Assembly: GCF_016908315.1 (NCBI RefSeq)
Contig: NZ_JAFBDQ010000005.1
Location: forward strand, 1 to 64,000
Direction of reading: 5' to 3'
Length of the DNA stretch: 64,000 nt
DNA from: Halanaerobacter jeridensis
GTDB taxonomy: Bacteria > Bacillota > Halanaerobiia > Halobacteroidales > Halobacteroidaceae
Below the pieces are notes generated by a model. It saw nothing but the letters and a program-made list of their open reading frames with translations, made no database searches and was not told the origin of the DNA. Position numbers and translations under genes: made by a program. Positions 1-42,008 of this stretch are shown here, one piece after another; positions within the stretch are counted from its first letter, which is position 1, and each line of letters starts with the position of its first letter.

Positions 1-534
1 ACCACTAGAAGTGCTCTTATCCCTCAGCTGATTAATCGCCTTAAACTTATCAATCAACAGATTGAAGAAATCAAAGAACAATTAGCTGAAAAAATTGATG
101 ATAACCCCTATCAATTAACTACTATACCTGGATTAGGTTACACTTTAGCAGCTCAATTCATTGCTGAAATCGGTCATATTGACCGTTTTGATTCTGCTAA
201 TGAATTAGCTAGGTATGCTGGATTAGCACCAGCTGAATACAGCTCAGGCAAATCTCAGCAAAGTTCTAGGAAAAAATACGGCTGTCGTAACCTAAACCGG
301 GCTTTCTATCTACTAGCTTTACAACAAATTGGCACTACTAGAAATAACAGACCTAAAAATCCAGTTGCCTATAAATACTATCAGAAAAAATTAGCTGAGG
401 GTAAATCACGCAAAGCTGCTTTAGTCTGCTTAAAAAGACGCTTAGTTGATATTATTTATGCTATGATGCGAGACAAATCTACCTATGAATTACCTGAAAC
501 TCCTGAGTACGAAGTCTTAAATCAAGCCAGTTAA
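1..534 (+). CDS. IS110-family transposase, C-terminal part (5' end lies outside the window)
   Basis: Frame 1 is open from base 1 to the TAA at 532-534; it is absent from the ORF track because it has no start codon in the window. The translation ...TIPGLGYTLAAQFIAEIGHIDRFDSANELARYAGLAPAEYSSGKS...KAALVCLKRRLVDIIYAMMRD resembles the C-terminal helix-hairpin-helix module of IS110/IS1111-type transposases. Confidence 0.75.
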   Translation, partial: TTRSALIPQLINRLKLINQQIEEIKEQLAEKIDDNPYQLTTIPGLGYTLAAQFIAEIGHIDRFDSANELARYAGLAPAEYSSGKSQQSSRKKYGCRNLNRAFYLLALQQIGTTRNNRPKNPVAYKYYQKKLAEGKSRKAALVCLKRRLVDIIYAMMRDKSTYELPETPEYEVLNQAS

Positions 535-673
535 TTGATAATCTCTGAATTAGCTGCCATTAGTTAAAAAATCTATAATTATTGCTTTGGGGATTGCTAG
601 GTCAAATTAGTTTCCATTTTTTAACTTGTAAAACTTTTACTTGACATAAGACGTCTTATATTTCACTTTAAAT

Positions 674-1255
674 TCAAAATTTATTACACAACTCATCTAA
701 CTTATCTCTTAATTCTTTTACCTTTTCTTTACTAACTTCGAAATTAACCTTTTTACTTTCCCCATCATTACAAGCGATATCTAATTCAATTAAAGCTGTA
801 GTAATATTATGTCCTAATTCTTCTTTTTTTATTACTTGATAATTTAATGACCTTAACTTATCATTTAAACACGAAATATGAAATAATAATTTTTGTTTGA
901 ATTCATCAGTCAAAATAATTTCACGTAATTTTTCAATTAAGTATGAATTTAATTCAATAAAATCTTTATCAAAATTCTTTTCTCCTAAAGATTTTTTCTC
1001 TATAAATGCTTCAATAAGTTCAGTTAAAATATGTAACGTATATTTTAAATAAAATTCATTCAAATCATATTCTTCTATATATTCATTATATGAAGTCTCT
1101 GATACTCCTATTCCGTATGACATATAATTTACATCCAATCCTATAATCCCTTTTTTATTCATTTCATCTAAACAATTTACAATTTCATCACACTTTTCTT
1201 TATCTGTTAATAAATTTTCTATTTCTTCTTGTTTTTCAAAATTAATTTCTGACAT
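674..1255 (-). CDS. hypothetical acidic protein (193 aa)
   Basis: ORF-track ORF in which I recognise no family. It lies between attC-like site 1 and the IS110 fragment, so it may be the remnant of a further cassette whose own attC-like site is missing. Confidence 0.45.
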   Translation of the reverse strand: MSEINFEKQEEIENLLTDKEKCDEIVNCLDEMNKKGIIGLDVNYMSYGIGVSETSYNEYIEEYDLNEFYLKYTLHILTELIEAFIEKKSLGEKNFDKDFIELNSYLIEKLREIILTDEFKQKLLFHISCLNDKLRSLNYQVIKKEELGHNITTALIELDIACNDGESKKVNFEVSKEKVKELRDKLDELCNKF

Positions 1256-1500
1256 ATTATTCCTCCTCGCATAAGTTTATAATTTGAATTTTTTATAAAC
1301 TATACTCATATGTAAGTAATACTATATATAAGTATATTTTCCTGCATATATAGATAACTTTTTTATTTTCTTATTTTTAATAATAACAAAAATATTAATG
1401 AATTTACAGTTAAAATTATATTTTAAAAATAAAATTTTTATTAGAACCATTAATAAAAATATTCAAAACTACATAAAAAACAAAACTTCTAAAATAGGAT

Positions 1501-1636
1501 TTCGGATAACGTCCCTGCGATTCGCGACGTCTCGCTACTGCTCCTATACTTTGCCTATTCTCCTAAATTTCATAAGTCAGTGCTTAACCCTGCACTATCC
1601 TCTAGACCTAGATGTCGCTAATCGCATGTTATATGA
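1501..1636 (-). repeat. attC-like cassette recombination site, copy 1
   Basis: Plus-strand 5' arm TTCGGATAAC-GTCCC-TGCGATT-C-GCGACGTCT; 3' arm AGATGTCGC-T-AATCGCA-T-GTTATATGA. The heptads TGCGATT and AATCGCA are perfectly complementary. About 85 nt of pyrimidine-rich loop lies between the arms. Confidence 0.8.
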
Positions 1637-2522
1637 TGGAGCGACCCGGAACCACAAAGATAAAATTCTGCTTTTGCTATTATCTTAGCTAAAAATCATT
1701 TCTTACGCATCACAAAGCAGTTCTATTCCTAGCCCAAAACTATTTACCTGAGGGAAAGGGGGCGAAACTTCTATCTTCCTAATAAGTGAATCTTTTCTCT
1801 CAATTATGTAATTCTTGCTAATATGTATAAACCCTTCATAAAATAATCCAATTTTCAAAAAGATAAAAATGGGTTTTCAACTTTCACATTCAAAATGAAA
1901 TTAAGGAGTTAGCTAATACAATTTTGCCATGCTATTCCAAGTTTTTTATCGTCTATCACAATGCTCTTTACTAACAAATTAAAAAGCTCTCCATTTAGCC
2001 TAACTCCTGTCCAGCACCGCACTGGTTTTCCTAACGAAAAGACTAGCCTAATAATTCCTAATCAAGGATAAAGAAAGGTTTTCTTCTGCCCCCTTTCCCT
2101 TTTCCAATTTTCTCTGCAAGATAGAAGTTGACTACATCAATCTAGCCATGCTATACCACAGATTATTTAATAACTCTTATGCTCTTTATTCTGCATTGAA
2201 AATTTATAAGTAGTCACACTTCTATCCTAAGAATAATCCAAATAAATAAACTTGCACAATGATAAAGAGGTTAGGAAATGTTATAAAAATATTGCTGAAG
2301 CTTTTTTTGAATTGAATCTTTTACCTGAGGTTTTAATGAAAGATTTTTAACCCTAATTTGTTTTCTTTTTAAATAAGTAACTAAAAAAGCTCTATTATTT
2401 TCCCTAATTTGCTATTAAAAATCTTAAACCTATAAAAAAATCACTATTTCCTAACCTTCCCTCGAAAATAGTGATCTCTTACTGGTTGGATTCTATAACT
2501 GAAAATCAATATCTTAGCTCTT
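1637..2522 (-). other. ORF-poor cassette (886 bp between attC-like sites 1 and 2)
   Basis: No credible ORF of 60 aa or more. It contains two 12-nt complementarities: GGGAAAGGGGGC at 1752-1763 with GCCCCCTTTCCC at 2088-2099, and AACTTCTATCTT at 1766-1777 with AAGATAGAAGTT at 2118-2129. Confidence 0.5.
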
Positions 2523-2657
2523 TCATATAACGTCCCGCAGCTTCGCGACGTCCCATCAATGCTCTATAACCTAATCTAATGCAACCTTAATTTCATAAGT
2601 CAGTCCTAACCTCATTTATACTCTACAATTGGATGTCGCTAAGCTGCTGTTATGCGA
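2523..2657 (-). repeat. attC-like cassette recombination site, copy 2
   Basis: TCATATAAC-GTCCC-GCAGCTT-C-GCGACGTCC ... GGATGTCGC-T-AAGCTGC-T-GTTATGCGA. The heptads are complementary. The terminal pair has covaried (..GTCC/GGAT.. here versus ..GTCT/AGAT.. in the other copies). The 5' flank complements GTTATATGA of copy 1. Confidence 0.8.
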
Positions 2658-2679
2658 AGTGCTAAATCTCAGATAACAA

Positions 2680-4140
2680 CTATATATCACTTGAAAAATA
2701 ATTATCAATGATTTTCCGTAATTTCTTTACTCCCTTCTCTTTGGCTTTATTTCGAATTTCTTCTTTGGAAAAATAATTTATTTGATATTTATTAGTGCTT
2801 TGAGCGCGTTCTTTCAAATAATCTTCTGCTTCTTTTTCAAAACCACCAGTAGACCATAACTCAAAAATGAGCTCTTTATTTCTATGTTCATCTTCTTGAA
2901 AAGTCCAACTTCTTATTTTAGGAATATTATCTGTCACCCATTTTTTAGCAAACCCCTTTCCTATTGGGGCTTTCTTTCCCTTGCATTCAACAATCCTTAA
3001 TCTATCGGGATTATCATAAGCAAGAACATCAATTTCTCTTCTTTCCCCACTATCTTTATCAAGAACTACCTCATTGATTTTAATATATATAGATGATTGA
3101 GAATAATAATATCCTACAGCCAATTCAAAAAGTGCTCCTCTTAAATTAATAGACGCTCCTCTTAAATCAGATAATTTATCAAATAAATCAAAATATTTAT
3201 CAGGATTTTTACTAATAACTGCAGAAGCATTTTCGATTACATTTACTAATGACTTCAATACTTCAGTATATTGGTTATCAAATAATTCATTAACAAATCC
3301 AATAAATATTCCTCGAGATTTAAGCAACTGAAAAGCTTCCTTCTCTAAATCTTCTACTATAATAATAGGGATAAAAGAAGAAACATTATGATTCTGTTTG
3401 ATAATATCAATTTTATTTAAAAAATATTCAACATGCTCTTCTAATACTTCTTTTCCCAGTAAAATATCTGCCACAATAAATCCTGGTGAATCTTCATTTC
3501 TTAAATTAAGAATATAAGATGGAGCTGTAAAACCCCACTGAAATTTATAAAATTCCGCATTATTAGATAACTTTTCTGCATCATTATAAGAAGTGAAATT
3601 TATTTTTTTCGCCCAATCTTCAAAATTAGAAATAGTTAGTTCTTTTGCTAACTCAATTGCTTTAAATCTGGTATGAGTTGAACTAACTTCTATTAATGAA
3701 TTCAACTGATATATATCATCAGTATATTCAACTAAAACATCTAATTGTAGCAAATCATCAATAATAGAGCTAGCCGGTTTATGTCCTTTTAACTTTTTAA
3801 TCGGAGAACAAGTATAACTAGGTAATTGATTCATATCTATAAATCCATCATGAAATAATACTGCTTGTATAAAAAAATGATACGCTTTAGCATGAGTTTC
3901 AAAACTGTTTACTAAATTTTGATAAAAAAGTTGAGTCTTAAAATGATCACTTAAATAAATAAATTGTTGGTTATTATTAAAAGAAATAGTCTTCATTTTT
4001 TTCACAGGAGAATTTGCCCGGGAAATAGCTTTTCTAGCTGCATCATTAGTTATTTCATGTTTTTCTTCTAATTTTTTAGCTAATACTCCGGAAACCATTG
4101 GACCATCATCTTGAAGAATCTTTTCTATACGTGTTGTCAT
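2680..4140 (-). CDS. wHTH-like N-terminus plus Mrr/PD-(D/E)xK-like nuclease C-terminus (486 aa), single-gene cassette
   Basis: The C-terminal pattern GALFELAVGYYY...REIDVLAYD...LRIVECKGKK resembles the Mrr-type restriction endonuclease core. The N-terminus MTTRIEKILQDDGPMVSGVLAKKLEE... looks like a winged helix. It is the only ORF between sites 2 and 3. Confidence 0.55.
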   Translation of the reverse strand: MTTRIEKILQDDGPMVSGVLAKKLEEKHEITNDAARKAISRANSPVKKMKTISFNNNQQFIYLSDHFKTQLFYQNLVNSFETHAKAYHFFIQAVLFHDGFIDMNQLPSYTCSPIKKLKGHKPASSIIDDLLQLDVLVEYTDDIYQLNSLIEVSSTHTRFKAIELAKELTISNFEDWAKKINFTSYNDAEKLSNNAEFYKFQWGFTAPSYILNLRNEDSPGFIVADILLGKEVLEEHVEYFLNKIDIIKQNHNVSSFIPIIIVEDLEKEAFQLLKSRGIFIGFVNELFDNQYTEVLKSLVNVIENASAVISKNPDKYFDLFDKLSDLRGASINLRGALFELAVGYYYSQSSIYIKINEVVLDKDSGERREIDVLAYDNPDRLRIVECKGKKAPIGKGFAKKWVTDNIPKIRSWTFQEDEHRNKELIFELWSTGGFEKEAEDYLKERAQSTNKYQINYFSKEEIRNKAKEKGVKKLRKIIDNYFSSDI

Positions 4141-4316
4141 TTTATGTCACACCTCACTATTTATAAATAAACAATCAATCAAGCGATCAATTAATTTTTT
4201 TAGTTTTTCAATACCGACAATTCAATAGTTCATAGAGCTGGAAAAAAATACAATGTCACACTTTCCTTTTCAAACTAAAAAATTGTCACTAAAATATGTA
4301 ACTAAGATTTAGCATT

Positions 4317-4453
4317 TCGCATAACGTCCCTGGGCTTCGCGACGTCTAGGCACTGCTCCTATACTTTTGCCTATGCTCCTAAATTTCATAAGTCAGTGCT
4401 GCAACCCTGCCATATCCTCTGTGCCTAGATGTCGCTAAGCCCATGTTATCTGA
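4317..4453 (-). repeat. attC-like cassette recombination site, copy 3
   Basis: TCGCATAAC-GTCCC-TGGGCTT-C-GCGACGTCT-AGGCAC ... GTGCCT-AGATGTCGC-T-AAGCCCA-T-GTTATCTGA. An extra 6-bp stem (AGGCAC/GTGCCT) is present. The flank TAGCATTTCGCATAAC complements GTTATGCGAAGTGCTA of copy 2. Confidence 0.8.
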
Positions 4454-4489
4454 CGTAGCCATTGTCGAATAAAAACTACTGTACTTACA

Positions 4490-6280
4490 TCAAAAATTTT
4501 GGTTATAATTAAGATTAGGTAAGGCAATTAAACAACTTGCTTTTTTATGATATCCATAGCGATTAAGCCCCATATTAGCAAATAAAAACACATCCTTCTT
4601 GGCTCTGGTAATCCCAACATAAAAAATGCTAAGCACTTCTTCAAATTCTTCTCTTAAAGAAGACAAAAACTGGAATTTACAACATTTATCAAACTCTTCC
4701 TTCCCTTGTTTAGCACTACACAACTTGCAAAGTCCTTTTGAAGTAGGAAATGAGTATGCTGTAACTCTAGGAATGTATACATAATCCCATTCTAATCCTT
4801 TGGCACCATGTATTGTAGTTATTGTTATCCTTTCATCAATTTCATTCATTAAATGCTTTAAAGATTCATTTTCTAACACAAAAGAAATCTTTTCAAACTT
4901 TTTATTTTTTGATATATTTTCTGCTTTAGTTTTTTGAAACAATTTTTTTAATAACCTTAACAAGGAATTATATATATACATTGTATCATCTTCATATATA
5001 TCTTCAGTAAGCAATTCCTCCATTCTATCAACAACTCTACTTAGTACACGTTTTGCAATAGATTGATTGATACCACTTTCTTCCAAAAACACATCTAAAG
5101 CTTTCTCATGAAAAGCTACATATTCTCTGTCAGTATCATTGAATAATCCATTAAAATAGGAAATAGATTGTTCTTCTAATTTTTCAATTACCTCATTAGT
5201 ACAATAACTAGCTCGACACAAAATAGATACATCATCAGAATCACTAATCTTATCTTTAATATGTTCTACAATAAACTCGGCTTCTTTATGATTGCTCTTA
5301 AAAAATTTAAAATTCATTTCAGCTTCTTTATCAAAAGAATCCATCTCACTATAATTTAAAAAGATACTACGAATATAACTGTCTAATTTTTTCATCTTTT
5401 CATTATCATCAAATCTATGATTTGTTTTGAATCTCATTTCTTCCATATTAAATTCCTCAGCCATATGGTCAAACAAATCAGGAATAGCTCCAATAAAGCC
5501 ATAAATTTTCTGAATTTTATCTCCCATTAAAATAATTTCGTTTTCTCCCATTAATTTTGTAAGCAATCTATATGATAAATAATTAGTATCTTGAAATTCA
5601 TCAACAATAATCATTTTATAATATTGCTGATAAAAATTTCTAATTGATTTCTTATTTAATAAATAATAGGAAAAAAGCAATAATCCATTAAATGTAATAA
5701 CTTCATTAGGGATTAATATTTCGTTTAAAATCTCAAAATAATTGCTTTCTAACTTTTCAACATTATCAATATTTTCTTTTTCAAACCCATTAAAATTTTT
5801 AATACATTTGTCATACTCTGATAAAATGTCCATTTCCGAAGATGATAGATAATCCTTTAGCACTGCTGAATAATCGGATACTATTCTAAAAGAATCCATA
5901 GCCCCCAAATTTTTATTTAATAAATATCCATGTTTTTTTAACAAAATTCTTGCTAAATTATGATAATTTGCTACATCAAGTTTCTTGGATAAATCAACAT
6001 TTTCATCATCTAATAATTCAGGTAATAATTCATTAGTATCTTTTTTAATTTTATTAGCTGCATTTACGCTAAATGTAAGGGCTAATATTTTTTTATGATG
6101 TATTGTCGGATCTGTAACTATTTTGTAAGCAATTTTACTAATCATTGTTTTGGTTTTCCCATATCCAGCTGGAGCAGTTACAATTATTCTTTGTTTTTGA
6201 CTGAAAATAAAATCAAGTTGCTCTTCATCTTTTCCATGAATATCCTCAATTGATTTAGAAATAGCTTTTTTATTCTTCAT
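4490..6280 (-). CDS. gajB: UvrD/PcrA-like SF1 helicase, Gabija GajB-like (596 aa)
   Basis: Walker A VTAPAGYGKTKT, motif II IIVDEFQDTN, TIHGAKGLEWDYVYIP and YVGITRAKKDVFLF. It overlaps the upstream OLD-family gene by 11 nt. Confidence 0.8.
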   Translation of the reverse strand: MKNKKAISKSIEDIHGKDEEQLDFIFSQKQRIIVTAPAGYGKTKTMISKIAYKIVTDPTIHHKKILALTFSVNAANKIKKDTNELLPELLDDENVDLSKKLDVANYHNLARILLKKHGYLLNKNLGAMDSFRIVSDYSAVLKDYLSSSEMDILSEYDKCIKNFNGFEKENIDNVEKLESNYFEILNEILIPNEVITFNGLLLFSYYLLNKKSIRNFYQQYYKMIIVDEFQDTNYLSYRLLTKLMGENEIILMGDKIQKIYGFIGAIPDLFDHMAEEFNMEEMRFKTNHRFDDNEKMKKLDSYIRSIFLNYSEMDSFDKEAEMNFKFFKSNHKEAEFIVEHIKDKISDSDDVSILCRASYCTNEVIEKLEEQSISYFNGLFNDTDREYVAFHEKALDVFLEESGINQSIAKRVLSRVVDRMEELLTEDIYEDDTMYIYNSLLRLLKKLFQKTKAENISKNKKFEKISFVLENESLKHLMNEIDERITITTIHGAKGLEWDYVYIPRVTAYSFPTSKGLCKLCSAKQGKEEFDKCCKFQFLSSLREEFEEVLSIFYVGITRAKKDVFLFANMGLNRYGYHKKASCLIALPNLNYNQNF

Positions 6281-7997
6281 TATCTTCTACTCCATTCATT
6301 AATTCTTCTATAATATCTTTAAAAACTTCAGGCACATTAGTAACATATTTTGCTAAAAGAGAACCATTTAAAGCATTTTTTTTATTCCTTAATTGTTTTA
6401 TTTCTTCTTCTTGATAATTTAGCATAATTCTATTTTTAACTTCCTCAGGAACCTCATATTCTTCAGGAGCTTCTATAAAAAGTCTGGGACTAAATTCTTC
6501 CATCTCCTTTTTTAAATAATTTATAAAAGGAGTAATTTTATCTGCTTCCTTTTGATAAAGCAAATAATCATTAAAATCAAAACTATTATATATTTCTGCT
6601 TCAAAATCTATTTCATTTGTGAAAAATATTCCATCTTCATTTTTATATTTTTCTTCTTGATCTTTATCAATTATAGCTATAGCTCTAATATCATATGCAT
6701 CATAAAGTTTCATACATCTAAGAACACTACCAGCCCCATCAAGTTTTATAATTCCAATACTTTCTTCATCAATATCATATCCTATTCTTTCAATAAGTAC
6801 TGGTAAAGCTCCGAATTCTGTATCACCTTCTACAAGAACTACAGCTTTACTAAACATAGCTTCTTTAATATACATAAAACTTCTTATTAAGTGTTTATGA
6901 GTTTTATCATTAAAATCTATATTTCTACCACACTTTACATTAACTTTATCATTAACCTTATATAATCTAGTAATTTGTTTATAGTTATTTAATAATATAT
7001 TAGGAGAATGTGTAACAACAAACACTTGTCCAATCAAACCATCTATTTCAAATAATTCTTCGAGAAGTTTGATAAAGTCTTCATTCTTATTATCAATAAT
7101 TCTTTTTATACCTTTAATTAATGCTCTTTGTCTATATGGATGTTGGTGTATTTCAGGTTCATCTAAAGCAATTACAATTGGTAAATATCTATTTCCCTCA
7201 TCATCATTAATTAAAATATTATTAAATTTTTCTTCTTTCTTATTAGTTTTTAATTTTATTAACAAATCTAAAATATATAAAAATATATTAAATGAATATT
7301 GTAAGCCATCACCAAGTTCATTTAAACTTTTACCTGTATTGTCTCCTACCTCTAAAATTCGACTAACAATATTCTGCTCATCATCATCCACAAATGCTTC
7401 AATTACTTCTCCTTTTAACCCATTTATTTTATATATTTTTTTATTTAAATCATCAACAATTTCATTAACATCACTAATATTAATTAAATCTAAATTTTCT
7501 ATATCTCTTTCCTCCAAAATGTTTTCAACTAAGTAATTTAAAACTTTTCCAGTTCCAGTGTTTTTTGAAAAATCTATTTCTTTGCTAGGATTCCTTAATG
7601 ACGAATAATAAATAAAATTGATTTTTTTAATAGTTATTGGATTTATATATGTATCTGCCGGAGATGCATGTTTATATTCAATTCGACTATAAATATCTTC
7701 TTGAGTTGCTATAATAGTTAAACTATATTCATCATCAATATCAAAATTATTTTCAAAAAAACCCAATTCATCTTTATTGTAACTTATAGTGAATTTAACA
7801 GATATCTCCTTCTTTGTATCATCAAAATGTTCTTCATAGAATTTACCCTTACGTAATAAACAATTAAGCAACTCCATTACATTAGTTTTACCAACATTAT
7901 TTTCTCCAACTAAAAAATTAATTTCCTCATCAAATTTAAAATTTAGTCCGCTTAAATTCTTGAAATTTTTTACTTCTTTTATTTCACTTACAAACAT
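6270..7997 (-). CDS. gajA: OLD-family ATPase-TOPRIM nuclease, Gabija GajA-like (575 aa)
   Basis: N-terminal ABC-like ATPase (FLVGENNVGKTNVMELL; LDEPEIHQHP) and a C-terminal TOPRIM (AVVLVEGDTEFGALPVL; IAIIDKD). It is immediately followed by the UvrD-like gene, which is the class-2 OLD/Gabija arrangement. Confidence 0.8.
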   Translation of the reverse strand: MFVSEIKEVKNFKNLSGLNFKFDEEINFLVGENNVGKTNVMELLNCLLRKGKFYEEHFDDTKKEISVKFTISYNKDELGFFENNFDIDDEYSLTIIATQEDIYSRIEYKHASPADTYINPITIKKINFIYYSSLRNPSKEIDFSKNTGTGKVLNYLVENILEERDIENLDLINISDVNEIVDDLNKKIYKINGLKGEVIEAFVDDDEQNIVSRILEVGDNTGKSLNELGDGLQYSFNIFLYILDLLIKLKTNKKEEKFNNILINDDEGNRYLPIVIALDEPEIHQHPYRQRALIKGIKRIIDNKNEDFIKLLEELFEIDGLIGQVFVVTHSPNILLNNYKQITRLYKVNDKVNVKCGRNIDFNDKTHKHLIRSFMYIKEAMFSKAVVLVEGDTEFGALPVLIERIGYDIDEESIGIIKLDGAGSVLRCMKLYDAYDIRAIAIIDKDQEEKYKNEDGIFFTNEIDFEAEIYNSFDFNDYLLYQKEADKITPFINYLKKEMEEFSPRLFIEAPEEYEVPEEVKNRIMLNYQEEEIKQLRNKKNALNGSLLAKYVTNVPEVFKDIIEELMNGVEDNEE

Positions 7998-8128
7998 TTT
8001 TTTTGCCCCCGTTTCAATTTAAGTAATTAATCTTCTAATTTAAATAAAATTAGTTCATCGATTAAAATCAAGAAAAATTATATTTGATCTTAATCTCTTT
8101 GGATAACCTCTTTTTCAAAATGGCTATG

Positions 8129-8263
8129 TCAGATAACGTCCCTGGGGTTCGCGACGTCTCGGGACTGCTCCTCTATTCTGCTCATCATCCTAAATTTCAT
8201 AAGTCAGTGCTACAACCCTGCCCTATCCTCTTACCTAGATGTCGCTAAGCTCATGTTATGTGA
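8129..8263 (-). repeat. attC-like cassette recombination site, copy 4
   Basis: TCAGATAAC-GTCCC-TGGGGTT-C-GCGACGTCT ... AGATGTCGC-T-AAGCTCA-T-GTTATGTGA. The heptads pair with one G:T and one mismatch. The flank AATGGCTATGTCAGATAAC complements GTTATCTGACGTAGCCATT of copy 3. Confidence 0.8.
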
Positions 8264-8749
8264 TGTAGTTAGCAAAAGATATTTTCTATATTCTCCAAAA
8301 CCTATGCAAACACTTCTAAACTATGCTAAACCTATTCTACTCACCTTTGCTAATGAGACTTTTCTTTCACAATCCTTCCCAAACAGCTCTAATTAGAGTT
8401 CTCTTACAACTATAATTCTATAACTTTAAAAAAAGAATAAACCGAAAGAGATAGAGTAGATATCCTTCCCTAAAATGGTTTCTAAATGTGTTTTTAACTT
8501 CACTATACTCAAAAATTTGCCTCTAAACCTGAGCATTTTCGCCGAAAAATTATACCAACGCCCAAAATATAGCCTAGGCATCGCTACTGGACTAACTTCA
8601 AACAAATATACTTCCACATAACTTATATAAGCCTTAACTCTATATTTCTTTTCCTTAATATAAAAAAGCATCTACTCTATCTCTTGACCGGTTATAGAAT
8701 TCTGCAGCATTTTCTATTCTAATACAAACAAACCCATTTGCTAACTATG

Positions 8750-8886
8750 TCACATAACGTCCCTGGGCTTCGCGACGTCTCGGGACTGCTCCTATACTTT
8801 TGCTTATCCTCATAAATTTCATAAGTCAGTGCTGCAACCCTGCCCTATCCTCTATACCTAGATGTCGCTAAGCCCATGTTATCCGA
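8750..8886 (-). repeat. attC-like cassette recombination site, copy 5
   Basis: TCACATAAC-GTCCC-TGGGCTT-C-GCGACGTCT ... AGATGTCGC-T-AAGCCCA-T-GTTATCCGA. The flank TTTGCTAACTATGTCACATAAC complements GTTATGTGATGTAGTTAGCAAA of copy 4. Confidence 0.8.
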
Positions 8887-8923
8887 CGCCCGGCTTCTAT
8901 AAAAAATATATCCCTCTTTTAAC

Positions 8924-9781
8924 CTAGTAACTTTTTAATATATCTAAATATTCACTTTTTGTTTCATTATCATATAAACCCTTCGCTTCATTTAGAGTTT
9001 CTATAGCCCAGTCTACATATTTTTGATTTACTTTTTTACTATTTTCTATTTTTTCTATAAATCTTTCTATTTTATTTCTCAATTTATTGTTTACTGATTT
9101 TAATTTTTCTTCCAATTGTTCATTCTCTTCTGCTAGTTCTTCATTCTCTTCTGCTAGTTCTTCATTCTCTTGCTCTAATTGTTCTTCAATTTCTTTTAAC
9201 ATTTCTAATCTTTGTTTTAACCGTTGTGTTTCCTTCTTTTCTTGTTGTGTTTCCTTCTTTTCTTGTTGTGTTTCCTTCTTTTCTTGTTGTGTTTCCTTCT
9301 TTTCTTGTTGTAATTTCTTATCAGACTGCTCAACTGCCTCATCTAATGCACTTAACTCTTCATCACTCCATTCAGTACTTTCCTTACTACTCTCACCTTC
9401 ATTTAATATTTCTTTTATTTTGCTTTTAACCCAACTAGGAGCTTCTATAAAATCTTTTCTCAATCTTTTATTCTCTGATTTCAACAACTCTTTATAAGCT
9501 AAATCTAAATTAGAAAGATTATCTTTAGTCAATATATCTATTTCAATTAAATTTTCTGCGAATTCTCCTGGTTTCATAAATTTATCTTCTAATTTGCTTA
9601 TTTCTTCTAATTCGTCATATAATTTAGTTTTAGCCTTATTAGTACTTAATTCAGCTTGTTTTAGTTTCTCTTCTGTTAAACCATAATCCTCATTTAACTT
9701 AGTAGTTACATCATCTGCTAAAACATTCACTGTCAAAACCAATAGCAATACAATCAATAATAAAACACTTAACTTCTTCAT
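8924..9781 (-). CDS. secreted coiled-coil protein with tandem heptapeptide repeats (285 aa)
   Basis: N-terminal signal-like segment MKKLSVLLLIVLLLVLTVNVLA. It carries a QQEKKET x4 repeat and an ELAEENE repeat, is strongly charged and looks helical. It is the sole ORF of the cassette between sites 5 and 6. Confidence 0.6.
   Translation of the reverse strand: MKKLSVLLLIVLLLVLTVNVLADDVTTKLNEDYGLTEEKLKQAELSTNKAKTKLYDELEEISKLEDKFMKPGEFAENLIEIDILTKDNLSNLDLAYKELLKSENKRLRKDFIEAPSWVKSKIKEILNEGESSKESTEWSDEELSALDEAVEQSDKKLQQEKKETQQEKKETQQEKKETQQEKKETQRLKQRLEMLKEIEEQLEQENEELAEENEELAEENEQLEEKLKSVNNKLRNKIERFIEKIENSKKVNQKYVDWAIETLNEAKGLYDNETKSEYLDILKSY
9224..9307 (-). repeat. 4 x 21-bp perfect tandem repeat inside the coiled-coil gene
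   Basis: The unit ttgtgtttccttcttttcttg is repeated four times on the plus strand and encodes QQEKKET x4. A second 21-bp unit (ttcattctcttctgctagttc) is repeated just over twice at about 9121-9170. Confidence 0.85.
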
Positions 9782-9860
9782 AATCTGCCTCCCCTAAATT
9801 ATGGTTTTTAATGTTTTTAATATGTATTTCTTTCAATAAAAATAGCAGCTAAGCCGGGTT

Positions 9861-9994
9861 TCGGATAACGTCCCTAGGGTTCGCGACGTCTAGCTAAACC
9901 CTCCTATAACTTGTCCATCCTCTAAAACTCAATATTCAATTCCTAACCTTCCCTAACCTCTCAACCTAGATGTCGCTAACCCTATGTTAGACGA
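9861..9994 (-). repeat. attC-like cassette recombination site, copy 6 (divergent loop subfamily)
   Basis: TCGGATAAC-GTCCC-TAGGGTT-C-GCGACGTCT ... AGATGTCGC-T-AACCCTA-T-GTTAGACGA. The heptads are complementary. The loop differs from copies 1-5. The flank AAGCCGGGTTTCGGATAAC complements GTTATCCGACGCCCGGCTT of copy 5. Confidence 0.8.
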
Positions 9995-10014
9995 TGTTTG
10001 CTTGATAAAAATCA

Positions 10015-11046
10015 TTACCTTCTCTCTATTTCTTCAATTATTAATTTTGGGAATTTATATTCAATTACAGCAATAGCTTCTTTTAAAAGCGGATAAGAAA
10101 AATCTCCTTTTGAACTAGTAATCATTGACATCCAATGAGTTGGATAATATCGAACTAACATACCAATCGCATATGAAATAATGTAAATAGTTAATAAAGA
10201 AGAAAAATTTAAATTATCAGCTAAAGGGGCAACAGCAAATATATTATTTTTTCTATCATTTTTTACAAACGGAACTCTATTATAAAACTCTTCATTAGAA
10301 GAATGAATTATTCTAAAAGATATATTTTCTAAATTACCTGCAAAATTATGTTTTTCCTTCTTTCTCGTTTTAATGTCTTTTGGTAAACCAAAGTCATCTC
10401 TAACTAATTCCTTATTAGGTAACCCAATACTAGTTTCTAACACTGCAATATCTGTTTGTTCAGATAAACAAAAAACAATTGCATTATAACATTTAGAATA
10501 ATCATCAAAAGTATTCTCATATATATTTTGTAATTCCGGAATCCTCGCTAATATTTCTTTAATAGTAATTAAATTATTACTATCTTCTTTACCCCCATAT
10601 TGTTTTATTTTAGTTCGATTTGGATATGGAGCTATATATATTGAACTTCTCTCAATATTTTCTGTAACCTCCCATAACTTAGAAAATGTGCCAGAAGTAA
10701 TCTCAACATTCAAATTAGGTACTTCTTCTATTCCATCTGAAAGTTTTTGGGTCCAATTTTTCACTCTTAATCCATGAGATGGTTTAAGGCTAGTTACTCT
10801 TGCAAAAGGATCTAAAAATAAAATTAATCCACGACAAAATGCAACTACTCCGTAATAAAACAATAGAGGAGATACAACATTATCAGCCTGTTTTGCACTG
10901 GAAAAATATTCTCTTCCTTGAGTAATATGAGAAACTATTTCCTCTGCTTTTCCAGCCGAAAGTTCTCTATCATGCTTCTCTTCATAAAATTTTGAAACTA
11001 AATCTTTGCTTTCATACAAAGATATCTTAGACCAAACATTTTTCAT
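10015..11046 (-). CDS. YaaC-like protein (343 aa), second gene of a two-gene cassette
   Basis: The N-terminal region ...EIVSHITQGREYFSSAKQADNVVSPLLFYYGVVAFCRGLILFLDP... resembles my recollection of the B. subtilis YaaC family. The family assignment was not verified by any search. Confidence 0.45.
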   Translation of the reverse strand: MKNVWSKISLYESKDLVSKFYEEKHDRELSAGKAEEIVSHITQGREYFSSAKQADNVVSPLLFYYGVVAFCRGLILFLDPFARVTSLKPSHGLRVKNWTQKLSDGIEEVPNLNVEITSGTFSKLWEVTENIERSSIYIAPYPNRTKIKQYGGKEDSNNLITIKEILARIPELQNIYENTFDDYSKCYNAIVFCLSEQTDIAVLETSIGLPNKELVRDDFGLPKDIKTRKKEKHNFAGNLENISFRIIHSSNEEFYNRVPFVKNDRKNNIFAVAPLADNLNFSSLLTIYIISYAIGMLVRYYPTHWMSMITSSKGDFSYPLLKEAIAVIEYKFPKLIIEEIERR

Positions 11047-11069
11047 TATTTACCTCCCTTTTTCCCTTG

Positions 11070-11528
11070 TCACAAATTTACTTTTTCTAACTGTGTAGGC
11101 CAAGCTCCTTGACCATTTCCTCCTTTAAAATAAACTCTATAATTTTTTCCTATAGAAGAAACAACATGTTTAGTAATATACTTCTTTTCTTCACCATCAA
11201 TTTCAACTTTACTTTTCTTTTTAACTTTGTCTCCAGGCTTTAAATTTAATTCTTCAATTGCTTGCTTATTATTTTCTTTTAATTTATCCTCAATTTTTGC
11301 TGAGGCAACTCTCAACGAATTGTTTTTAAGATCTAAACCCAATTCTTCTCCAAATTCAATTTGTTTTTCAGTAGACTCATTAAATTCCATATTAGGATCA
11401 ATTGCTGGTTCAACTGCATCATAAATCCTTGCACTTGCTACATTACGAGTATCATTAGAAATATCAACTTCTAATTTAATTGCTATATTCTTTTGAAATG
11501 GTGTTGGTTTTTTATGAACATCATTCAC
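11070..11528 (-). CDS. hypothetical protein with an internal duplicated ~32-aa motif (152 aa), first gene of the two-gene cassette
   Basis: The two repeats are TPFQKNIAIKLEVDISNDTRNVASARIYDAV and STEKQIEFGEELGLDLKNNSLRVASAKIEDKL. The lysine-rich C-terminal segment ends in ...YRVYFKGGNGQGAWPTQLEKV. It lies 23 nt upstream of the YaaC-like gene. Confidence 0.5.
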   Translation of the reverse strand: MNDVHKKPTPFQKNIAIKLEVDISNDTRNVASARIYDAVEPAIDPNMEFNESTEKQIEFGEELGLDLKNNSLRVASAKIEDKLKENNKQAIEELNLKPGDKVKKKSKVEIDGEEKKYITKHVVSSIGKNYRVYFKGGNGQGAWPTQLEKVNL

Positions 11529-11573
11529 AAATAAATTTCCTCCTTTAAAAAATATAATATAACAAAAGCAAAT

Positions 11574-11709
11574 GTCGTCTAACGTCCCTGGGGTTCGCGA
11601 CGTCTAGCTCAACCCTCTTATAACTTGTCCTTCCTATAAAACTTTCATATGTAATCTCTACCTTCACCCATCCTCCTAGCCTAGATGTCGCTAACCCCAT
11701 GTTATGTGA
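11574..11709 (-). repeat. attC-like cassette recombination site, copy 7 (divergent loop subfamily)
   Basis: TCGTCTAAC-GTCCC-TGGGGTT-C-GCGACGTCT ... AGATGTCGC-T-AACCCCA-T-GTTATGTGA. Its CTAAC core matches the GTTAG of copy 6 rather than its own GTTAT. Confidence 0.8.
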
Positions 11710-11845
11710 TGCTTCTGATCGGTTAATAAAAAATAATCCCCAATAAAATTAAAACCCTCATTAAAATTTAGCATAATAATAAATACTCATATCAAACAAC
11801 TATAATTCGAATTATTTTATACTAATATTATATTCAACCTTACTT

Positions 11846-12648
11846 TTACTCCTCAATTTGCAACTCAACTCCTGGTATATAAACATTAATCCTTTCTATT
11901 TTAAATCTAATTCTATTTTCTAATTCTTTTTTCACAATATCTTGAATTGTTTGCCCTACTTTATAAACTTTTTTCTAGAATCAACAATTATATTTAAGTT
12001 AACAGTAATTCTTTCACCTTGTCTTTCAATCTCAACACCTTTAGATAAATCTTTTAAACCTAATATATCCTTAAGCGCATTCAAAAAACTACCTCCATTA
12101 GTATCTACTACCCCATCTATCTCTCTAACAACTATTCCCACTAACTCTTCTATCTTGTTATATTTTTCATCTTCAATACTAATTGAATTCAATTCAATAT
12201 TATTTTCATTTCCTAATTTATATTTAGGAAATAATCTATTACTTGGATCATCTGGTTCAGTATAATCAAATTTTTTTATATTAACTTTAACCTTGTTAAC
12301 TTCAATTCCTGTTTTATGTTTCAATCTATATTTTACAGTATCTCTTATTTCTTGGGCTACTATATTACTTTGCATTTCATCTTTTATTATTGCATTAATT
12401 TCAATAATAAATCCGTCATCAATTATTCTATATTCTATTCCCTTAGATAAATTATTTATTCCTAATAATACACGAATATCATCAAAAAAACTTCCCTGCG
12501 TATCAATTACTCCATCTATTTCTCTAACAATAACCCCAATTAAAATTTTTATTACTTCTTTAGAAATCCTAATCTTTCCTTTGTTATTTTTTTGTTCAAT
12601 ATCAATATCCTTAGATTTTTTCATAATTGTTTTGCTCTCCTTTTGCAA
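11846..12648 (-). pseudogene. tandem-domain Asp23/Gls24-like protein, frameshifted in a homopolymer (first cassette next to the attI-like site)
   Basis: There are two Asp23-like halves (VIKILIGVIVREIDGVIDTQG... and IEELVGIVVREIDGVVDTNGG...). The ORF-track ORF stops at 11956, but the second domain continues in another frame (KVYKVGQTIQDIVKKELENRIRFKIERINVYIPGVELQIEE, stop at 11846-11848). The frame change is at the T6 run at 11969-11974. Confidence 0.6.
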
Positions 12649-12675
12649 TATAGATAAAAAGTTTTATAAGAAGTT

Positions 12676-12760
12676 TCACATAACTTATTTTTTAACGACA
12701 CAAAAATCATAATTTATAGTTGTTCCTTATATTTACGATGATTGTGTCGTTAAAATCAGA
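12676..12760 (-). promoter_or_regulatory. attI-like primary recombination site abutting the recombinase stop codon
   Basis: TCACATAAC at 12676-12684 complements GTTATGTGA at the right end of copy 7. An inverted pair of boxes follows: TTAACGACACA at 12692-12702 and TGTGTCGTTAA at 12743-12753. The box TGTCGTTAA matches TGTCGCTAA of the attC-like arms at 8 of 9 positions. Confidence 0.6.
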
Positions 12761-13801
12761 TTAGTTGATTAAATTATCTAACGGACTTTCTATGTTTGCA
12801 ATATCTCTTTTGCTGACATGAGTATATATTTCAGTAGTAGTAGAACTCTTATGTCCTAATAATTTTTGGATGTATCGTAAATCAGTTCCTTGCTCTAATA
12901 AATGTGTTGCAAAAGAATGTCTTAAAGTATGTACAGAAACATCTTTAGTAATATTAGCTTTTCTACAGGCTTTTTTGAATATTCTTTGTACTGATCTTGT
13001 AGTTAAGTGTTCTCCTTCTTTGCCTCCAGGAAACAACCTCTTTTCGGGTTGATATAATTGATGATACATTTTTATCTGTTTCAGACAAGATTCTGATAAG
13101 ATCGTATAGCGATCTTTTCTCCCCTTCCCTTGATTAATTTTAATTAGCATTCTATCACTATTAATATCATCCATTTTTAGTTTAACAACTTCACTAACCC
13201 TTAATCCAGCAGAATAAACTACATACAAAATTGTTTTATGTTTGGGGTTATCTAGACTATCTAAAATCTTCGCTACTTCTTTTTTACTTAATACTTCCGG
13301 TAACTTTTTTTCTTTTTGTGGTCGTGATAAAACAACTGAAATATCTTTATTATCCAATACTTCCCGGGCCAAGAACTTAATAGCACTAATCCCCTGGTTA
13401 ACAAATGAATGTGATAAATCTTGGTCTAATAAATCCAACAAATAATCCTTAATCTCAGCATCAGTCACTCGTGATAACTTCTTATTAATAAATCGTGCAA
13501 ACTGCCTAATATGACTCATATAAACTTTTTCCGTCTTTTCACTATAACCTTCTAAATTTAACTGATTTTTTAGTTCATTAATTACTAGTTCATTTTCTAA
13601 AGCACTGGAAATTATAATTCTTTCATTAACAAATTTCTCTTTTAACTGTTCTAAAATATCATAATCATAAGGTACTAACCATGCTCTAGCTTTAGGGGCC
13701 CATTCCCGCTTATTAATTTCTTTAATTTTTTTAATTTTTCTTTCCGAATAATCAAATTTAACAGCTAGTTGTCCTTCTAACTTTTCAATTCTTAATGTCA
13801 T
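12761..13801 (-). CDS. tyrosine recombinase (Xer/integrase family, 346 aa) with a ~70-aa N-terminal extension; candidate cassette integrase
   Basis: Catalytic motifs are present: AGLRVSEV, HTLRHSFATHLL and LLGHKSSTTTEIYTHV. Only about 55 aa separate GKGRKDRYTIL from HTLRHSF, so the ~100-aa spacing I recall for IntI1 and VchIntIA is absent. The N-terminus is MTLRIEKLEGQLAVKFDYSERKIKKIKEINKREWAPKARAWLVPYDY... Confidence 0.85.
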   Translation of the reverse strand: MTLRIEKLEGQLAVKFDYSERKIKKIKEINKREWAPKARAWLVPYDYDILEQLKEKFVNERIIISSALENELVINELKNQLNLEGYSEKTEKVYMSHIRQFARFINKKLSRVTDAEIKDYLLDLLDQDLSHSFVNQGISAIKFLAREVLDNKDISVVLSRPQKEKKLPEVLSKKEVAKILDSLDNPKHKTILYVVYSAGLRVSEVVKLKMDDINSDRMLIKINQGKGRKDRYTILSESCLKQIKMYHQLYQPEKRLFPGGKEGEHLTTRSVQRIFKKACRKANITKDVSVHTLRHSFATHLLEQGTDLRYIQKLLGHKSSTTTEIYTHVSKRDIANIESPLDNLIN

Positions 13802-14036
13802 AAATTAGCTCCTCTCTCGCACGCATAAAATTAAATCTAACAAAAAATAGATTTTATAACATTATAACCAAATTTAAGAGCTAATATACATTAAAATATA
13901 TTTGCAACTAGCTTTTCTTATTATATTATTGATTATATACATTTATAGCATATTCTAGTTATACTTTTATTTTTCTCCACTAAAAAATATTTTCCTGCAC
14001 ATTCATCGTTAAAATCAATTTATTCTACTTATTTTT

Positions 14037-14073
14037 ACAAAAAAATAAAAGCTATCAAAATAATTTTGATAGC
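14037..14073 (-). terminator. intrinsic terminator after the MCP remnant
   Basis: Stem GCTATCAAAA (14051-14060) with TTTTGATAGC (14064-14073). On the minus strand it is followed by a T-run (A-run at 14037-14050 on plus). Confidence 0.6.
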
Positions 14074-14154
14074 AAATTAAAGTTTATATTCTTTTTTATC
14101 TATAAACTAGGGCCAACAACAAATAAGTTACTCAATCAAAATTAATATTTATTA

Positions 14155-14820
14155 TTAAACATCATTCTTCTGAACTAATTGATTTAAACCTTCAGCTACA
14201 TCTGCTAATTGCTGAGAAGAAGCTGCAATGTCATCAGACATATGAGTTATTTCTTGTGATACATCCAAAACTTCATCACTATTTTCAGCTAAAGTTTGGG
14301 TGGAATTGTTTATAGCTTCTATTGCTGCATTTAAAGCTAATAAATTAGTCTGTTCTGCTATATTATCAATCAATTTAATTATTTTCCCAACTTCTTCAGA
14401 ATTATGATCAAGCTGATTAATCGTTTTTACTGTTTGACTTACAGAATCAGTAATGTCTTCCATACTGTCAATTGCTTTTTGAACTTTTTTGCTACCCAAC
14501 TGAACTCTCTTATTAGTTTTTTGAGCAAATTCTGCTACTTCGTTAATACTATTAGATATACCGTGTATTTTAAGTGCCATTTTTTCAATCAAAGAAGAAC
14601 TAGTTTCAATTGAGGCATTCCCTTCTTCAGCAGCAGCTGATAATTGTTGACTAGTAGCAGTAACTTCTCCAACTTTTTCTTTTATATTATTAATAATGAT
14701 ATTTAAATTCTGACTTAAATCTAAAGCTTCAGCCTGTTTTTCTTCTGCCAAATTTATTAAATGAATTGATTTATTAATTAACAAAATAGCAACAATTCCA
14801 GTGAAAATAAAAATAACCAT
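14155..14820 (-). pseudogene. methyl-accepting chemotaxis protein remnant (221 aa)
   Basis: It aligns by eye to the signalling domain of the 531-aa MCP at 37424-39019 ([17 protein letters not shown]..., [16 protein letters not shown]). It lacks the sensor region and the conserved hairpin tip ([18 protein letters not shown]...). Confidence 0.6.
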
Positions 14821-14991
14821 AATTAAAATCTAAGTAGTAGGGCCAAACATAGCTAATATAGTATCTGTAATTATATAATATTCAACTAATAATTAGTGGA
14901 ATTAAGGTAATTGAGTTTAAAAATAGATATTGTTTTGTTACTAAGGATACTTGATAAGTTTTTAATTTATTCCCTTTAACTACTAAAAATA

Positions 14992-15780: not shown

Positions 15781-15811
15781 TGATCACCTTTATTCAATTA
15801 ATTTTACTACC

Positions 15812-16630: not shown

Positions 16631-16716
16631 TGAAAAAAACCTCCACTAATTTAATTACTTTTAATCCAAGCAACAATATATTCCACTGAATTAATTTATT
16701 CTCCCTTACTAATATT

Positions 16717-16951
16717 TTATTCTTTGTTCTGGGCCAACAACTTACGAAATCCTCTTTCATCAAAATACGTTACTGCTTCAAAATTAGCCGGATGATTATA
16801 GGCACCTTCCTCAAAATATTCTGTCCTTCCCCTCTTGCTCCACTAAATATTGATTAACTGACCTTGATACAGTAGTCTTTCCTGCACTAGGCAGCCCTTC
16901 TACTAAAATTAAATTTTCTTCCCCTAACACTTCACCTCTCAGTTTTATCAC
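16717..16951 (-). pseudogene. remnant of a P-loop kinase/ATPase-like gene (frameshifted, truncated)
   Basis: The minus-strand translation gives VIKLRGEVLGEENLILVEGLPSAGKTTVSRSVNQYLVEQEGKDRIF, then a stop. It continues in another frame as EYFEEGAYNHPANFEAVTYFDERGFRKLLAQNKE. It is not in the ORF track. Confidence 0.4.
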
Positions 16952-17029
16952 ATAAAACTCTAATTACTATAATATTTCTCTGTAAAACTTAATTCTCATT
17001 CAATTGATTCAACTAAAACTGCACACCAG

Positions 17030-17898: not shown

Positions 17899-17981
17899 AA
17901 TCTATCTCCTTTCATGAAAGTGTAATTAAATAAACTAATAGTTTACTTAATTACATTTTACTCTTTTTTTAATTATTATCA

Positions 17982-18018: not shown

Positions 18019-18034
18019 AATTACATATTAATTA

Positions 18035-41950: not shown

Positions 41951-42008
41951 TTTGCTCACTCCTTTCCTAAATTCTATATAAATCTTCACTTTTTAGTGAA
42001 GATTTATA

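Follow-up and report, generated by a model that had tools for sequence, protein, structure and literature searches.

A 64,000-nucleotide stretch of the Halanaerobacter jeridensis genome (the whole of which is termed the window below) was found to carry a gene-cassette array with attC-like sites, headed by a tyrosine recombinase gene. H. jeridensis is a salt-loving, Gram-positive bacterium of the order Halanaerobiales, phylum Bacillota, and its locus reads, on the minus strand, from the recombinase gene through an attI-like site into the cassettes, which run down to ~1.5 kb and beyond. We interpret the locus as a chromosomal gene-cassette capture platform, integron-like in its working and driven by a recombinase other than IntI, and put the probability of this reading at about 0.8. 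Its function is integron-like, yet it falls outside the integrons by the IntI criterion with which the field defines them. From the sequence alone, the locus had been proposed to be an integron-like array in which attC-like sites are joined by an attI-like site and a tyrosine recombinase of the same orientation (the original prediction); this is supported here by covariation within the hairpins, by chimeric cassette ends in four independent arrays, and by a recurring pairing of recombinase, attI and array, with differing cassettes at a syntenic locus. We show directly the anatomy of the sites and their covariation, the chimeric ends of the cassettes, the window of the crossover, the domains of the recombinase and the comparative association.

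The attC-like sites and the cassette ends

Seven sites of the same polarity had been placed between the minus-strand gene blocks from 1.5 to 11.7 kb, and both motif counts and a covariance model bore this out (Table 1, where site limits are given as TAAC...GTTA, a length of ~125 nt). The conserved motifs of the left and right site ends each occurred exactly seven times in the 64 kb, in a single orientation; in shuffled controls the left motif was never found, and the right at most three times (mean 0.58). Applied to the window, the covariance model returned only these seven sites, with scores of 108-129 bits for the minus strand and no more than 20 bits for the reverse strand, and neither the end motifs nor the model revealed a further copy in the remaining 50 kb. 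Scattering of the repeat through non-cassette contexts, named beforehand as a sign against a cassette array, was not seen within the 64-kb window, where all seven copies lie in the array. The sites have a G+C content of 42-50%, in an array of 28.7% and a window that is otherwise 34.2%, and GC-rich palindromic repeats between genes would also be expected if the sites were self-spreading elements without cassette logic, such as repetitive extragenic palindromes (REP), the bacterial interspersed mosaic elements (BIME) built of them, or miniature inverted-repeat transposable elements (MITE). The sites' absence from the 50 kb of flanking chromosome and their single polarity speak against such an origin, as do the chimeric-end rule, the attI site and the linkage to a recombinase, which are foreign to REP or MITE elements; we hold this explanation to be exceedingly improbable.

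On the strand that is sense for the open reading frames (ORFs), a site takes the form TAAC-A-(five variable nt)-TTAGCGACATC...variable centre...GACGTCGCGAA-(complement of the five nt)-GGGAC-GTTA. Read outward from the centre, the hairpin arms are TTATGTGACAT (the R arm, 11 bp) and TTAGCGACAT (the L arm), which we take to resemble the 11-bp arms of Xer/dif sites. Two positions of the L arm, within the conserved stem, were always mismatched, and five extra bases, GGGAC on the sense strand, lie on one side of the hairpin directly beside GTT, forming what by eye is an asymmetric loop of 5 nt against 1 nt.

This hairpin was drawn by hand and scored on 30 sites from five loci: the window and the related loci L009/L012, L016, L017 and L020. 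Pairing was retained in 96.3% of cells, versus 86% in shuffles; cells in which both partners had changed numbered 61 versus 21.4, a count that none of 500 shuffles reached; and the covariation score was 0.262, versus at most 0.049 when the partners were slid out of register. The variable pentamer occurs as TGGGC/GCCCA, GCAGC/GCTGC and TAGGG/CCCTA, among other pairs, and since it switches while keeping its complement, it is the pairing that is conserved and not the sequence. A fold proposed by RNAalifold, a local GACGTC/GACGTT hairpin that showed no covariation, was discarded in favour of the long hairpin. The site bodies were 65-97% identical to one another, too similar for a clean answer when we tried to use the body as a marker of its own cassette, and that attempt was dropped. 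As in integrons, the array presents a cluster of imperfect palindromes with ...AAC/GTT... ends, in which structure is kept more than sequence. No exact match to the site motif was found among viral contigs.

The GTT-outward end of one site had been described as the reverse complement of the AAC-leading end of the next. When the 22 nt from GTT onward (of the preceding site or the attI-like core) were compared with the 22 nt that lead up to and include AAC of the next site, complementarity averaged 17.4/22 in the window, 16.9/22 in L009, 15.5/22 in L017 and 17.3/22 in L018. The two ends of a single site, in comparison, gave 10.1/22 in the window and non-adjacent pairs 10.7/22, with a range of 10-12/22 for such controls over the four arrays. 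The rule therefore holds, although the pairs are imperfect, positions 10-11 usually being mismatched. The attI-like core and the first site were complementary at 16-20 of 22 positions. The sites of all four arrays are thus chimeric, the start of a cassette being complementary to the 5' end of that cassette's own site, and, with a generic detector of chained complementary ends, no chain at unrelated loci or elsewhere in the window was longer than two.

The end rule is symmetric under reverse complementation and gives no polarity by itself; polarity was read from the position of attI, the spacing of ORFs to sites and the orientation of covariance-model hits. The recombinase-proximal site differs in structure from the others, and the first cassette begins at GTT without a hairpin body. 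Five of the seven sites are preceded by a stop codon at a distance of 16-38 nt, and the remaining two at ~155 and ~250 nt; start codons follow the preceding site at 36-250 nt. At all loci, the covariance model placed every site on the recombinase strand. All cassette ORFs had been described as sense with respect to the recombinase gene, which holds for the array ORFs of at least 150 aa; in the ORF list, the minus strand carries every ORF of that length between 674 and 13801.

Three observations confine the crossover to the bases C-G-T-T. At L009, a cassette termed A is present in identical copies, one joined to attI and another to a site, and the sequences of these two junctions begin to coincide exactly at GTTATGTGACAT. 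Positions 4-5 of GTTNN are variable, and in every case they agree with the next site and not with the host site, as GTTAG/CTAAC in the window, GTTAC/GTAAC in Orenia and GTTG/CAAC in L104 and L105; the original prediction that the GTTAG/CTAAC variant travels with the neighbouring site is hereby confirmed. A variant just 5' of CGTT, the ATATC that replaces GGGAC in an IS91 cassette of Natroniella, remains with the site body. From these comparisons, the exchange takes place within the four bases C-G-T-T, in agreement with G|TT and with the crossover at or beside GTT that had been proposed. A cassette unit accordingly runs from the TT of G|TT to the G that closes its own site.

As foreseen, a related but distinct site, reaching from 12676 to 12760, abuts the recombinase gene. 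Its core, TCACATAAC, occupies 12676-12684, of which only the first base, the G at 12684, belongs to attI, the remaining 12676-12683 being already cassette 1. Between the core and the recombinase stop codon, which the distinct site adjoins, lies an inverted repeat with the boxes TTAACGAC and GTCGTTAA; since the right-hand box stands 8 bp from TTATGTGA, attI has the look of an ordinary duplex core site. The same layout was seen 3' of the recombinase stop codon in every homologue examined (L009, L014, L016, L017, L018, L019, L103 and L104). In several taxa, the attI box bears a likeness to the L' arm of the sites at its own locus, reading GTCGTTAA against GTCGCGAA in the window, GCGGGTAA against GCGGGAA in L104 and GCGGGAAT against GTCGGGAAT in L103. 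As in integrons, attI neighbours the recombinase gene and is the point from which the first cassette starts.

The recombinase and the proposed reaction

The protein encoded beside attI matched the Pfam families SAM_4 and Phage_integrase (PF00589, E = 6.6e-41), and among 33 homologues the catalytic residues R201, K226, H291, H317 and Y326 were invariant and R294 nearly so, which identifies a tyrosine recombinase. Its sequence matches an H. jeridensis protein at 100% identity. Its best NCBIfam match was NF040815 (XerA / 'integron integrase'; 227.8 versus a cut-off of 220), and both models of IntI fell below their cut-offs (TIGR02249, 218 versus 265; NF011946, 144.7 versus 435). TIGR02249, the second-best NCBIfam match, aligned in two separate pieces, leaving out profile positions from 179 on; residues 179-239 of VchIntIA correspond to only 19 residues in the recombinase, and the alignment to archaeal XerA (4A8E) is contiguous. 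The IntI-specific insertion near patch III (intI_Cterm), by which integron integrases are recognized, was absent from 33 of 33 aligned family members.

These results bear on whether the array could be a canonical integron of the inverted-intI type, whose integrase belongs to the IntI clade and has merely diverged, its extra domain lost or shortened. The C-terminal SPLD motif is shared with IntI, identity is 31.9% to IntI1 and 30-32% to VchIntIA and IntI1, TIGR02249 is the runner-up among NCBIfam models, and Smyshlyaev et al. (2021) described the insertion as 'not fully conserved' in an integron-like subgroup, yet essential for function (PMC8138268). We nevertheless give this explanation little credence: the insertion is missing throughout the family and both IntI cut-offs were missed; archaeal XerA matches equally well in sequence and in fold, being nearly tied with VchIntIA in Foldseek; closer relatives, at 38-46% identity versus 32% for IntI1, are metagenome proteins that have neither the insertion nor the N-terminal domain; and the HARP-like domain at the N-terminus matches nothing in the VchIntIA structure.

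This N-terminal domain comprises the first ~64 residues, which are extra and conserved in the family, with W34 and W41 invariant. HARP was its sole Pfam match, below threshold (E 0.014). Modelled alone, it yielded a five-stranded sheet and two helices (pLDDT 86) with likeness to HARP and to the N-terminal domain of UvsW, so that, on the predicted structure, these ~65 residues have a HARP/UvsW-type fold. To our knowledge, no IntI carries a HARP-like domain. The HARP fold, a five-stranded sheet packed against two helices, is a junction-specific DNA-binding module that also forms the N-terminus of UvsW (PMC4666394). A phmmer search with the 70-aa domain returned 127 weak matches and was too insensitive to size the family. 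In other proteins (P0121, P0122 and P0126) the domain stands in tandem, two to six times; a 356-aa protein, for example, has three copies before SAM_4. No LexA (Cheo) box was found upstream of the recombinase gene, and a scan of genome contigs with the recombinase protein returned only remote Xer-like genes. Another 346-aa ORF in the window, at 40949-41989, proved to have no relation to the recombinase.

We infer the remaining steps, namely catalysis, a single-stranded substrate, the choice of strand and the role of the HARP-like domain, and propose them as follows. The two ends of a circular cassette would close into one long hairpin, its R stem reaching ~20 bp; recombination between two sites would excise circles, and recombination between attI and a site would insert them beside the recombinase gene. 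Tyrosine recombinases cleave the strand whose arm lies 5' of the central region; taken with a crossover at G|TT (sense notation), this rule would place an antisense cut at ...CACATAA|C, made by the monomer on the R arm, which matches the bottom-strand cleavage of integrons. The substrate would then be the folded bottom strand, and replication would resolve the junction, as it does in integrons. The HARP-like domain may stand in for the IntI insertion and read the bulge, the mismatches or features of the junction. The GC skew of the plus strand was strongly negative, from -0.17 to -0.33, over window positions 1-64000, and ~90% of genes lie on the minus strand; judged by these compositional signs, the whole window is on one replichore and the minus strand has leading-strand sequence. 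With GC skew and gene orientation making the sense strand leading-strand sequence, the bottom strand would be on the leading-strand template, an arrangement described for the large chromosomal integrons of Vibrio.

The same architecture could also be served by duplex recombination at dif-like core sites, in the manner of Xer/dif or pdif, the palindromy of a site then reflecting two inverted binding arms. The resemblance of the R and L arms to 11-bp Xer/dif arms, an attI with the 6-8 bp spacer of a duplex core site and the lack of strand asymmetry in folding energy fit this alternative, as does a recombinase devoid of the insertion that contacts the extrahelical bases in the VchIntIA structure. 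Against it, the variable 5-bp stem segment and the inner pairs covary without conserved sequence, a mark of selection for pairing and not for sequence read by a protein. As duplex, moreover, the arms stand 7 nt apart at one site end and 11 nt at the other, so that only folding yields one core-site geometry; the stems extend ~20 bp across the cassette ends; and the HARP-like fold binds junctions or structured DNA. We therefore regard duplex recombination as unlikely, though the strongest of the competing explanations, and favour the folded substrate.

Related loci and cassette content

A metagenome locus, L009, encodes a recombinase 87% identical to that of the window and is syntenic upstream, with a giant DUF3686 protein and a metallo-beta-lactamase (MBL)-fold gene. 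Its attI is followed by nine sites and mostly different cassettes, one of which holds a Shedu-like gene. Two cassette families, A and B, are common to the window and L009, at other positions and in other copy numbers, with their boundaries at sites. The gain and loss of cassettes at site boundaries, expected among relatives under the original prediction, was thus observed between species at a syntenic locus, where different cassettes are present and the shared families stand elsewhere. A 100%-identical tandem cassette duplicate beside attI in L009 suggests recent activity, and the differing cassettes, identical tandem duplicates and relocated families together lend indirect, sequence-based support to recombinase-dependent excision and insertion.

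An attI-like site and, in the same orientation, an array come after the homologue of the recombinase (42-87% identical to it) in each of L009 (9 sites), L014, L016, L017 (7), L018 (7), L019 (at least 6), L103, L104, L105 and the metagenome loci L020, L034, L035, L036 and L040. This adjacency, of constant orientation, recurs in at least 14 loci over several orders. Hosts of such homologues at 49-73% identity include Orenia metallireducens, Natroniella, Caldalkalibacillus salinus, Tindallia californiensis, a Gracilibacter-type contig, and two metagenome-assembled genomes (MAGs), one of 'Ignavibacteriales' and one of Bacillota. The relatives' sites have lineage-specific sequences and lengths of 70-183 nt, and the ends TAAC-A...RRRAC-GTTA are kept throughout. 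One might still suppose that the array is a fossil, akin to the clusters of attC sites lacking an integrase (CALINs), with an unrelated recombinase such as a chromosome-dimer resolvase or an island integrase beside it; such clusters, devoid of intI, are common, with reports from both Firmicutes and hypersaline metagenomes, and no recombination was observed in the window. Such a fossil would not explain the constant adjacency across orders, the likeness of the attI L-arm box to the local L' arm in several taxa, or the identical tandem duplicate in L009, and we judge it very improbable.

In our estimation it is somewhat more likely than not that there is a second lineage of integron-type capture systems, run by tyrosine recombinases that combine a HARP-like domain with a Xer-type core and lack the IntI insertion, and spread across Bacillota (Halanaerobiales, Clostridia and Bacilli), other MAGs and at least one Bacteroidota plasmid. 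As part of this proposal, and with the same modest leaning, the system would either stand midway between Xer/dif and IntI/attC or have reinvented cassette capture on its own.

A number of observations weigh against an active, integron-like capture platform. There is no read-level or experimental sign of recombination, and metagenome samples of the related species agree in cassette order where they overlap, so that gain and loss were seen only between species. No array was seen at L021, L039 and L048, three members of the family for which 2.5-10 kb of sequence was available downstream, and the far end of the window's array lies outside the window. The 486-aa product of cassette 6 was otherwise present only on a 1.86-kb short-read contig, which is colinear with the genome and not circular. 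The HARP assignment is structural, with a Pfam E of 0.014 that falls short of the cut-off, and the missing insertion has been reported to be essential for the function of IntI in integrons (PMC8138268). Finally, folding energies computed with DNA parameters differed between strands by a mean of -0.3 kcal/mol, the bottom strand being stabler in 16 of 29 sites, with no consistent preference; strand choice is consequently argued from geometry. A preference that had been read from G.T versus A.C positions was not backed by the folding energies.

Several features of the related loci deserve mention in their own right. L105 (plasmid NZ_CP041688.1 of Chryseobacterium sp. SNU WT5, 8965-13300) encodes a 42%-identical homologue that has the N-terminal domain, and two or more cassettes come after its attI-like core; the single site seen there is without the 5-nt bulge, and this plasmid system is possibly a mobile version. 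An IS91-family Y2 transposase gene forms a cassette with the variant site ATATC-GTTA in L016 (Natroniella sp., 12572-20948), where four identical 1627-bp copies are present, and in L104 (11399-13403), whose first cassette joins an IS91-family gene to a second small tyrosine recombinase. Reverse transcriptase genes of group II introns lie in or beside the arrays of L104 (17304-18569) and L105 (15729-17045), recalling the group IIC-attC introns of integrons. Cassettes of related arrays encode Shedu-like (SduA_C) and PDDEXK_2 proteins, nSTAND NTPases and ParE toxin-antitoxin genes (L009, 17144-18247; L017, 14531-15646, 16506-18636 and 18970-21044; L019, 16136-16619), the toxin-antitoxin pair in L019 being in reverse orientation. 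In related organisms, short-read assemblies are interrupted precisely at attI or the first site (L010, L011, L100, L101 and L102), so that such arrays are likely under-represented in MAGs.

The array of the window comprises at least eight cassettes, of which seven have their ends inside the window; since the own site of cassette 8 lies outside, the array may run past the window edge. Cassette content had been described as mainly defence-like, which is overstated: only the cassette with GajA and GajB matches a known defence system in PADLOC (E = 6e-158 and 9.7e-179, respectively), and Pfam agrees. The 486-aa protein of cassette 6 had no match in Pfam, NCBIfam, PADLOC or PDB, and the 193-aa product of cassette 8 was itself absent from the protein records searched. 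Within the ORF of cassette 3, in-frame 21-nt tandem repeats at 9107-9184 and 9202-9327 encode EENEELA and QQEKKET.

Two cassettes are non-coding. A part of ~500 bp (8259-8754) of cassette 4, which belongs to family A, is 87% identical between species, and L009 contains two 100%-identical tandem copies of this family beside attI and one paralogue (11120-12365 and 15436-15955). Cassette 7, of family B, is 90-91% identical to its L009 copy, versus 83.5% for the recombinase gene, and at least four copies are present in L009 (12369-15312 and 19708-20366). Over 1632-2527 it shows long-range complementarity between GGGAAAGGGGG and CCCCCTTTCCC, with RNA-fold z-scores of -2.9 on the plus strand and -1.2 on the minus strand; no Rfam match was found within the array, this cassette included, at E up to 1. 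Family B is a candidate for a large non-coding RNA or another cis element. Across the whole window, the sole Rfam match at gathering thresholds was a fluoride riboswitch at 53702-53770 on the minus strand (48.7 bits versus a gathering score of 34), and a scan for promoters and terminators gave counts equal to those of shuffles.

Table 1. Features of the cassette array, listed in order along the minus strand from the recombinase gene.
Feature	Position	Strand	Description
Tyrosine recombinase	12761-13801	-	346 aa; HARP-like N-terminal domain, ~aa 1-64 (13610-13801); SAM_4, aa 75-151; catalytic domain, aa 170-331
attI-like site	12684-12760	-	imperfect inverted repeat TTTTAACGACACAA...TTGTGTCGTTAA, 8-bp spacer, core GTTATGTGA
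Cassette 1	11583-12683	-	1101 bp; tandem Asp23-domain protein (ORF 11956-12648; Pfam PF03780)
attC-like site 7	11580-11704	-	site of cassette 1; covariance model 116.1 bits
Cassette 2	9869-11582	-	1714 bp; 152-aa unknown protein (11070-11528) and YaaC-like protein (10015-11046; PF14175)
attC-like site 6	9866-9989	-	site of cassette 2; covariance model 108.1 bits
Cassette 3	8758-9868	-	1111 bp; 285-aa protein (8924-9781) with signal-peptide-like N-terminus and coiled-coil repeats
attC-like site 5	8755-8881	-	site of cassette 3; covariance model 126.5 bits
Cassette 4	8137-8757	-	621 bp; non-coding 'A' cassette; 81-aa ORF not kept in homologous copies
attC-like site 4	8134-8258	-	site of cassette 4; covariance model 113.5 bits
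Cassette 5	4325-8136	-	3812 bp; complete Gabija system, GajA (6270-7997) and GajB (4490-6280)
attC-like site 3	4322-4448	-	site of cassette 5; covariance model 122.9 bits
Cassette 6	2531-4324	-	1794 bp; 486-aa protein of unknown family (2680-4140)
attC-like site 2	2528-2652	-	site of cassette 6; covariance model 120.9 bits
Cassette 7	1510-2530	-	1021 bp; non-coding 'B' cassette, ~900 bp without conserved ORF
attC-like site 1	1507-1631	-	site of cassette 7; covariance model 128.6 bits
Cassette 8 (start only)	1-1509	-	193-aa protein (674-1255) with COMM-like C-terminus; own site not in window

Comparison with known systems

Cury et al. (2016) defined IntI by its insertion near patch III and found Firmicutes without a complete integron (PMC4889954); IntegronFinder 2.0 reported one complete integron and a few CALINs in that phylum (PMC9024848), a 2024 preprint listed Bacillota among the clades without integrons, and hypersaline metagenomes yielded mostly CALINs rather than full integrons (PMC7923331). 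Recombinases without the extra domain near attC sites have been deemed not to be integron integrases, and the near-absence of integrons from Firmicutes has been called puzzling (PMC4889954, PMC9024848). Among open-access papers and bioRxiv preprints, we found neither a description of such a system, under Halanaerobiales integrons or under integron-like elements in Firmicutes/Clostridia, nor a report of a HARP domain fused to a tyrosine recombinase. A second lineage, if it is real, would explain the seeming lack of integrons in Gram-positive bacteria and account for some arrays now classed as CALINs; a conserved, array-linked recombinase family without the IntI domain would widen the definition of integron-type systems and bear on the origin of IntI/attC from Xer/dif. 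It would also offer a tractable test of folded-site recognition without the IntI insertion, by way of a HARP-like junction-binding domain, and open a large unexplored cassette pool that includes conserved non-coding cassettes as well as Gabija, Shedu-like and toxin-antitoxin genes. For such systems to be detected, existing tools would require a profile of the recombinase and a model of the site that are both new.

The closest counterparts are sedentary chromosomal integrons, especially the inverted-intI group of the Treponema type, in which a recombinase gene, attI and co-oriented cassettes with AAC...GTT imperfect palindromes likewise follow one another. Shared with chromosomal integrons are the chimeric cassette junctions, a crossover at or beside G|TT, sites whose structure is kept more than their sequence, and a syntenic chromosomal platform with variable cassettes, some of them non-coding and others with defence systems or, in L019, toxin-antitoxin pairs. 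As judged by eye, the sites differ from attC, which has single extrahelical bases and a roughly symmetric unpaired spacer, in their two conserved mismatches and the 5-nt bulge by the crossover; a further difference is an R-arm complementarity that reaches ~20 bp. The recombinase lacks the ~35-residue insertion that defines IntI (PMC4889954) and has a HARP-like N-terminal domain, and the host phylum, Bacillota, is one in which a single complete integron has been reported (PMC9024848). Known examples of the HARP / UvsW N-terminal domain are attached to superfamily 2 (SF2) motor proteins, whereas in the window the domain stands on a tyrosine recombinase.

With Xer/dif and archaeal XerA the system shares its best NCBIfam match, a top rank in sequence and fold alongside VchIntIA, and a contiguous alignment free of the insertion, as is typical of Xer proteins; the 11-bp arms and the 6-8 bp attI spacer are those of core sites. 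The XerD arm of E. coli dif reads TTATGTTAAAT, against TTATGTGACAT in the window sites, and bacterial Xer systems usually use a XerC/XerD pair. Xer acts at a single 28-bp dif site and has no arrays, hairpin sites or HARP-like domain, whereas seven hairpin sites and attI lie downstream of the recombinase here, and likewise in the homologues. The pdif modules of Acinetobacter plasmids, like these cassettes, are discrete accessory-gene modules bounded by Xer-type sites; pdif sites are 28-bp duplexes of alternating orientation, thought to be served by the host XerC/XerD, in contrast to covarying hairpins of ~125 nt with one polarity, a dedicated adjacent recombinase and attI. IntegronFinder would probably report such arrays as CALINs, provided that its attC model picks up the sites in the first place. 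Unlike a CALIN, the array is not orphaned, for it is paired with an attI-like site and with a conserved partner recombinase, which the IntI filter excludes.

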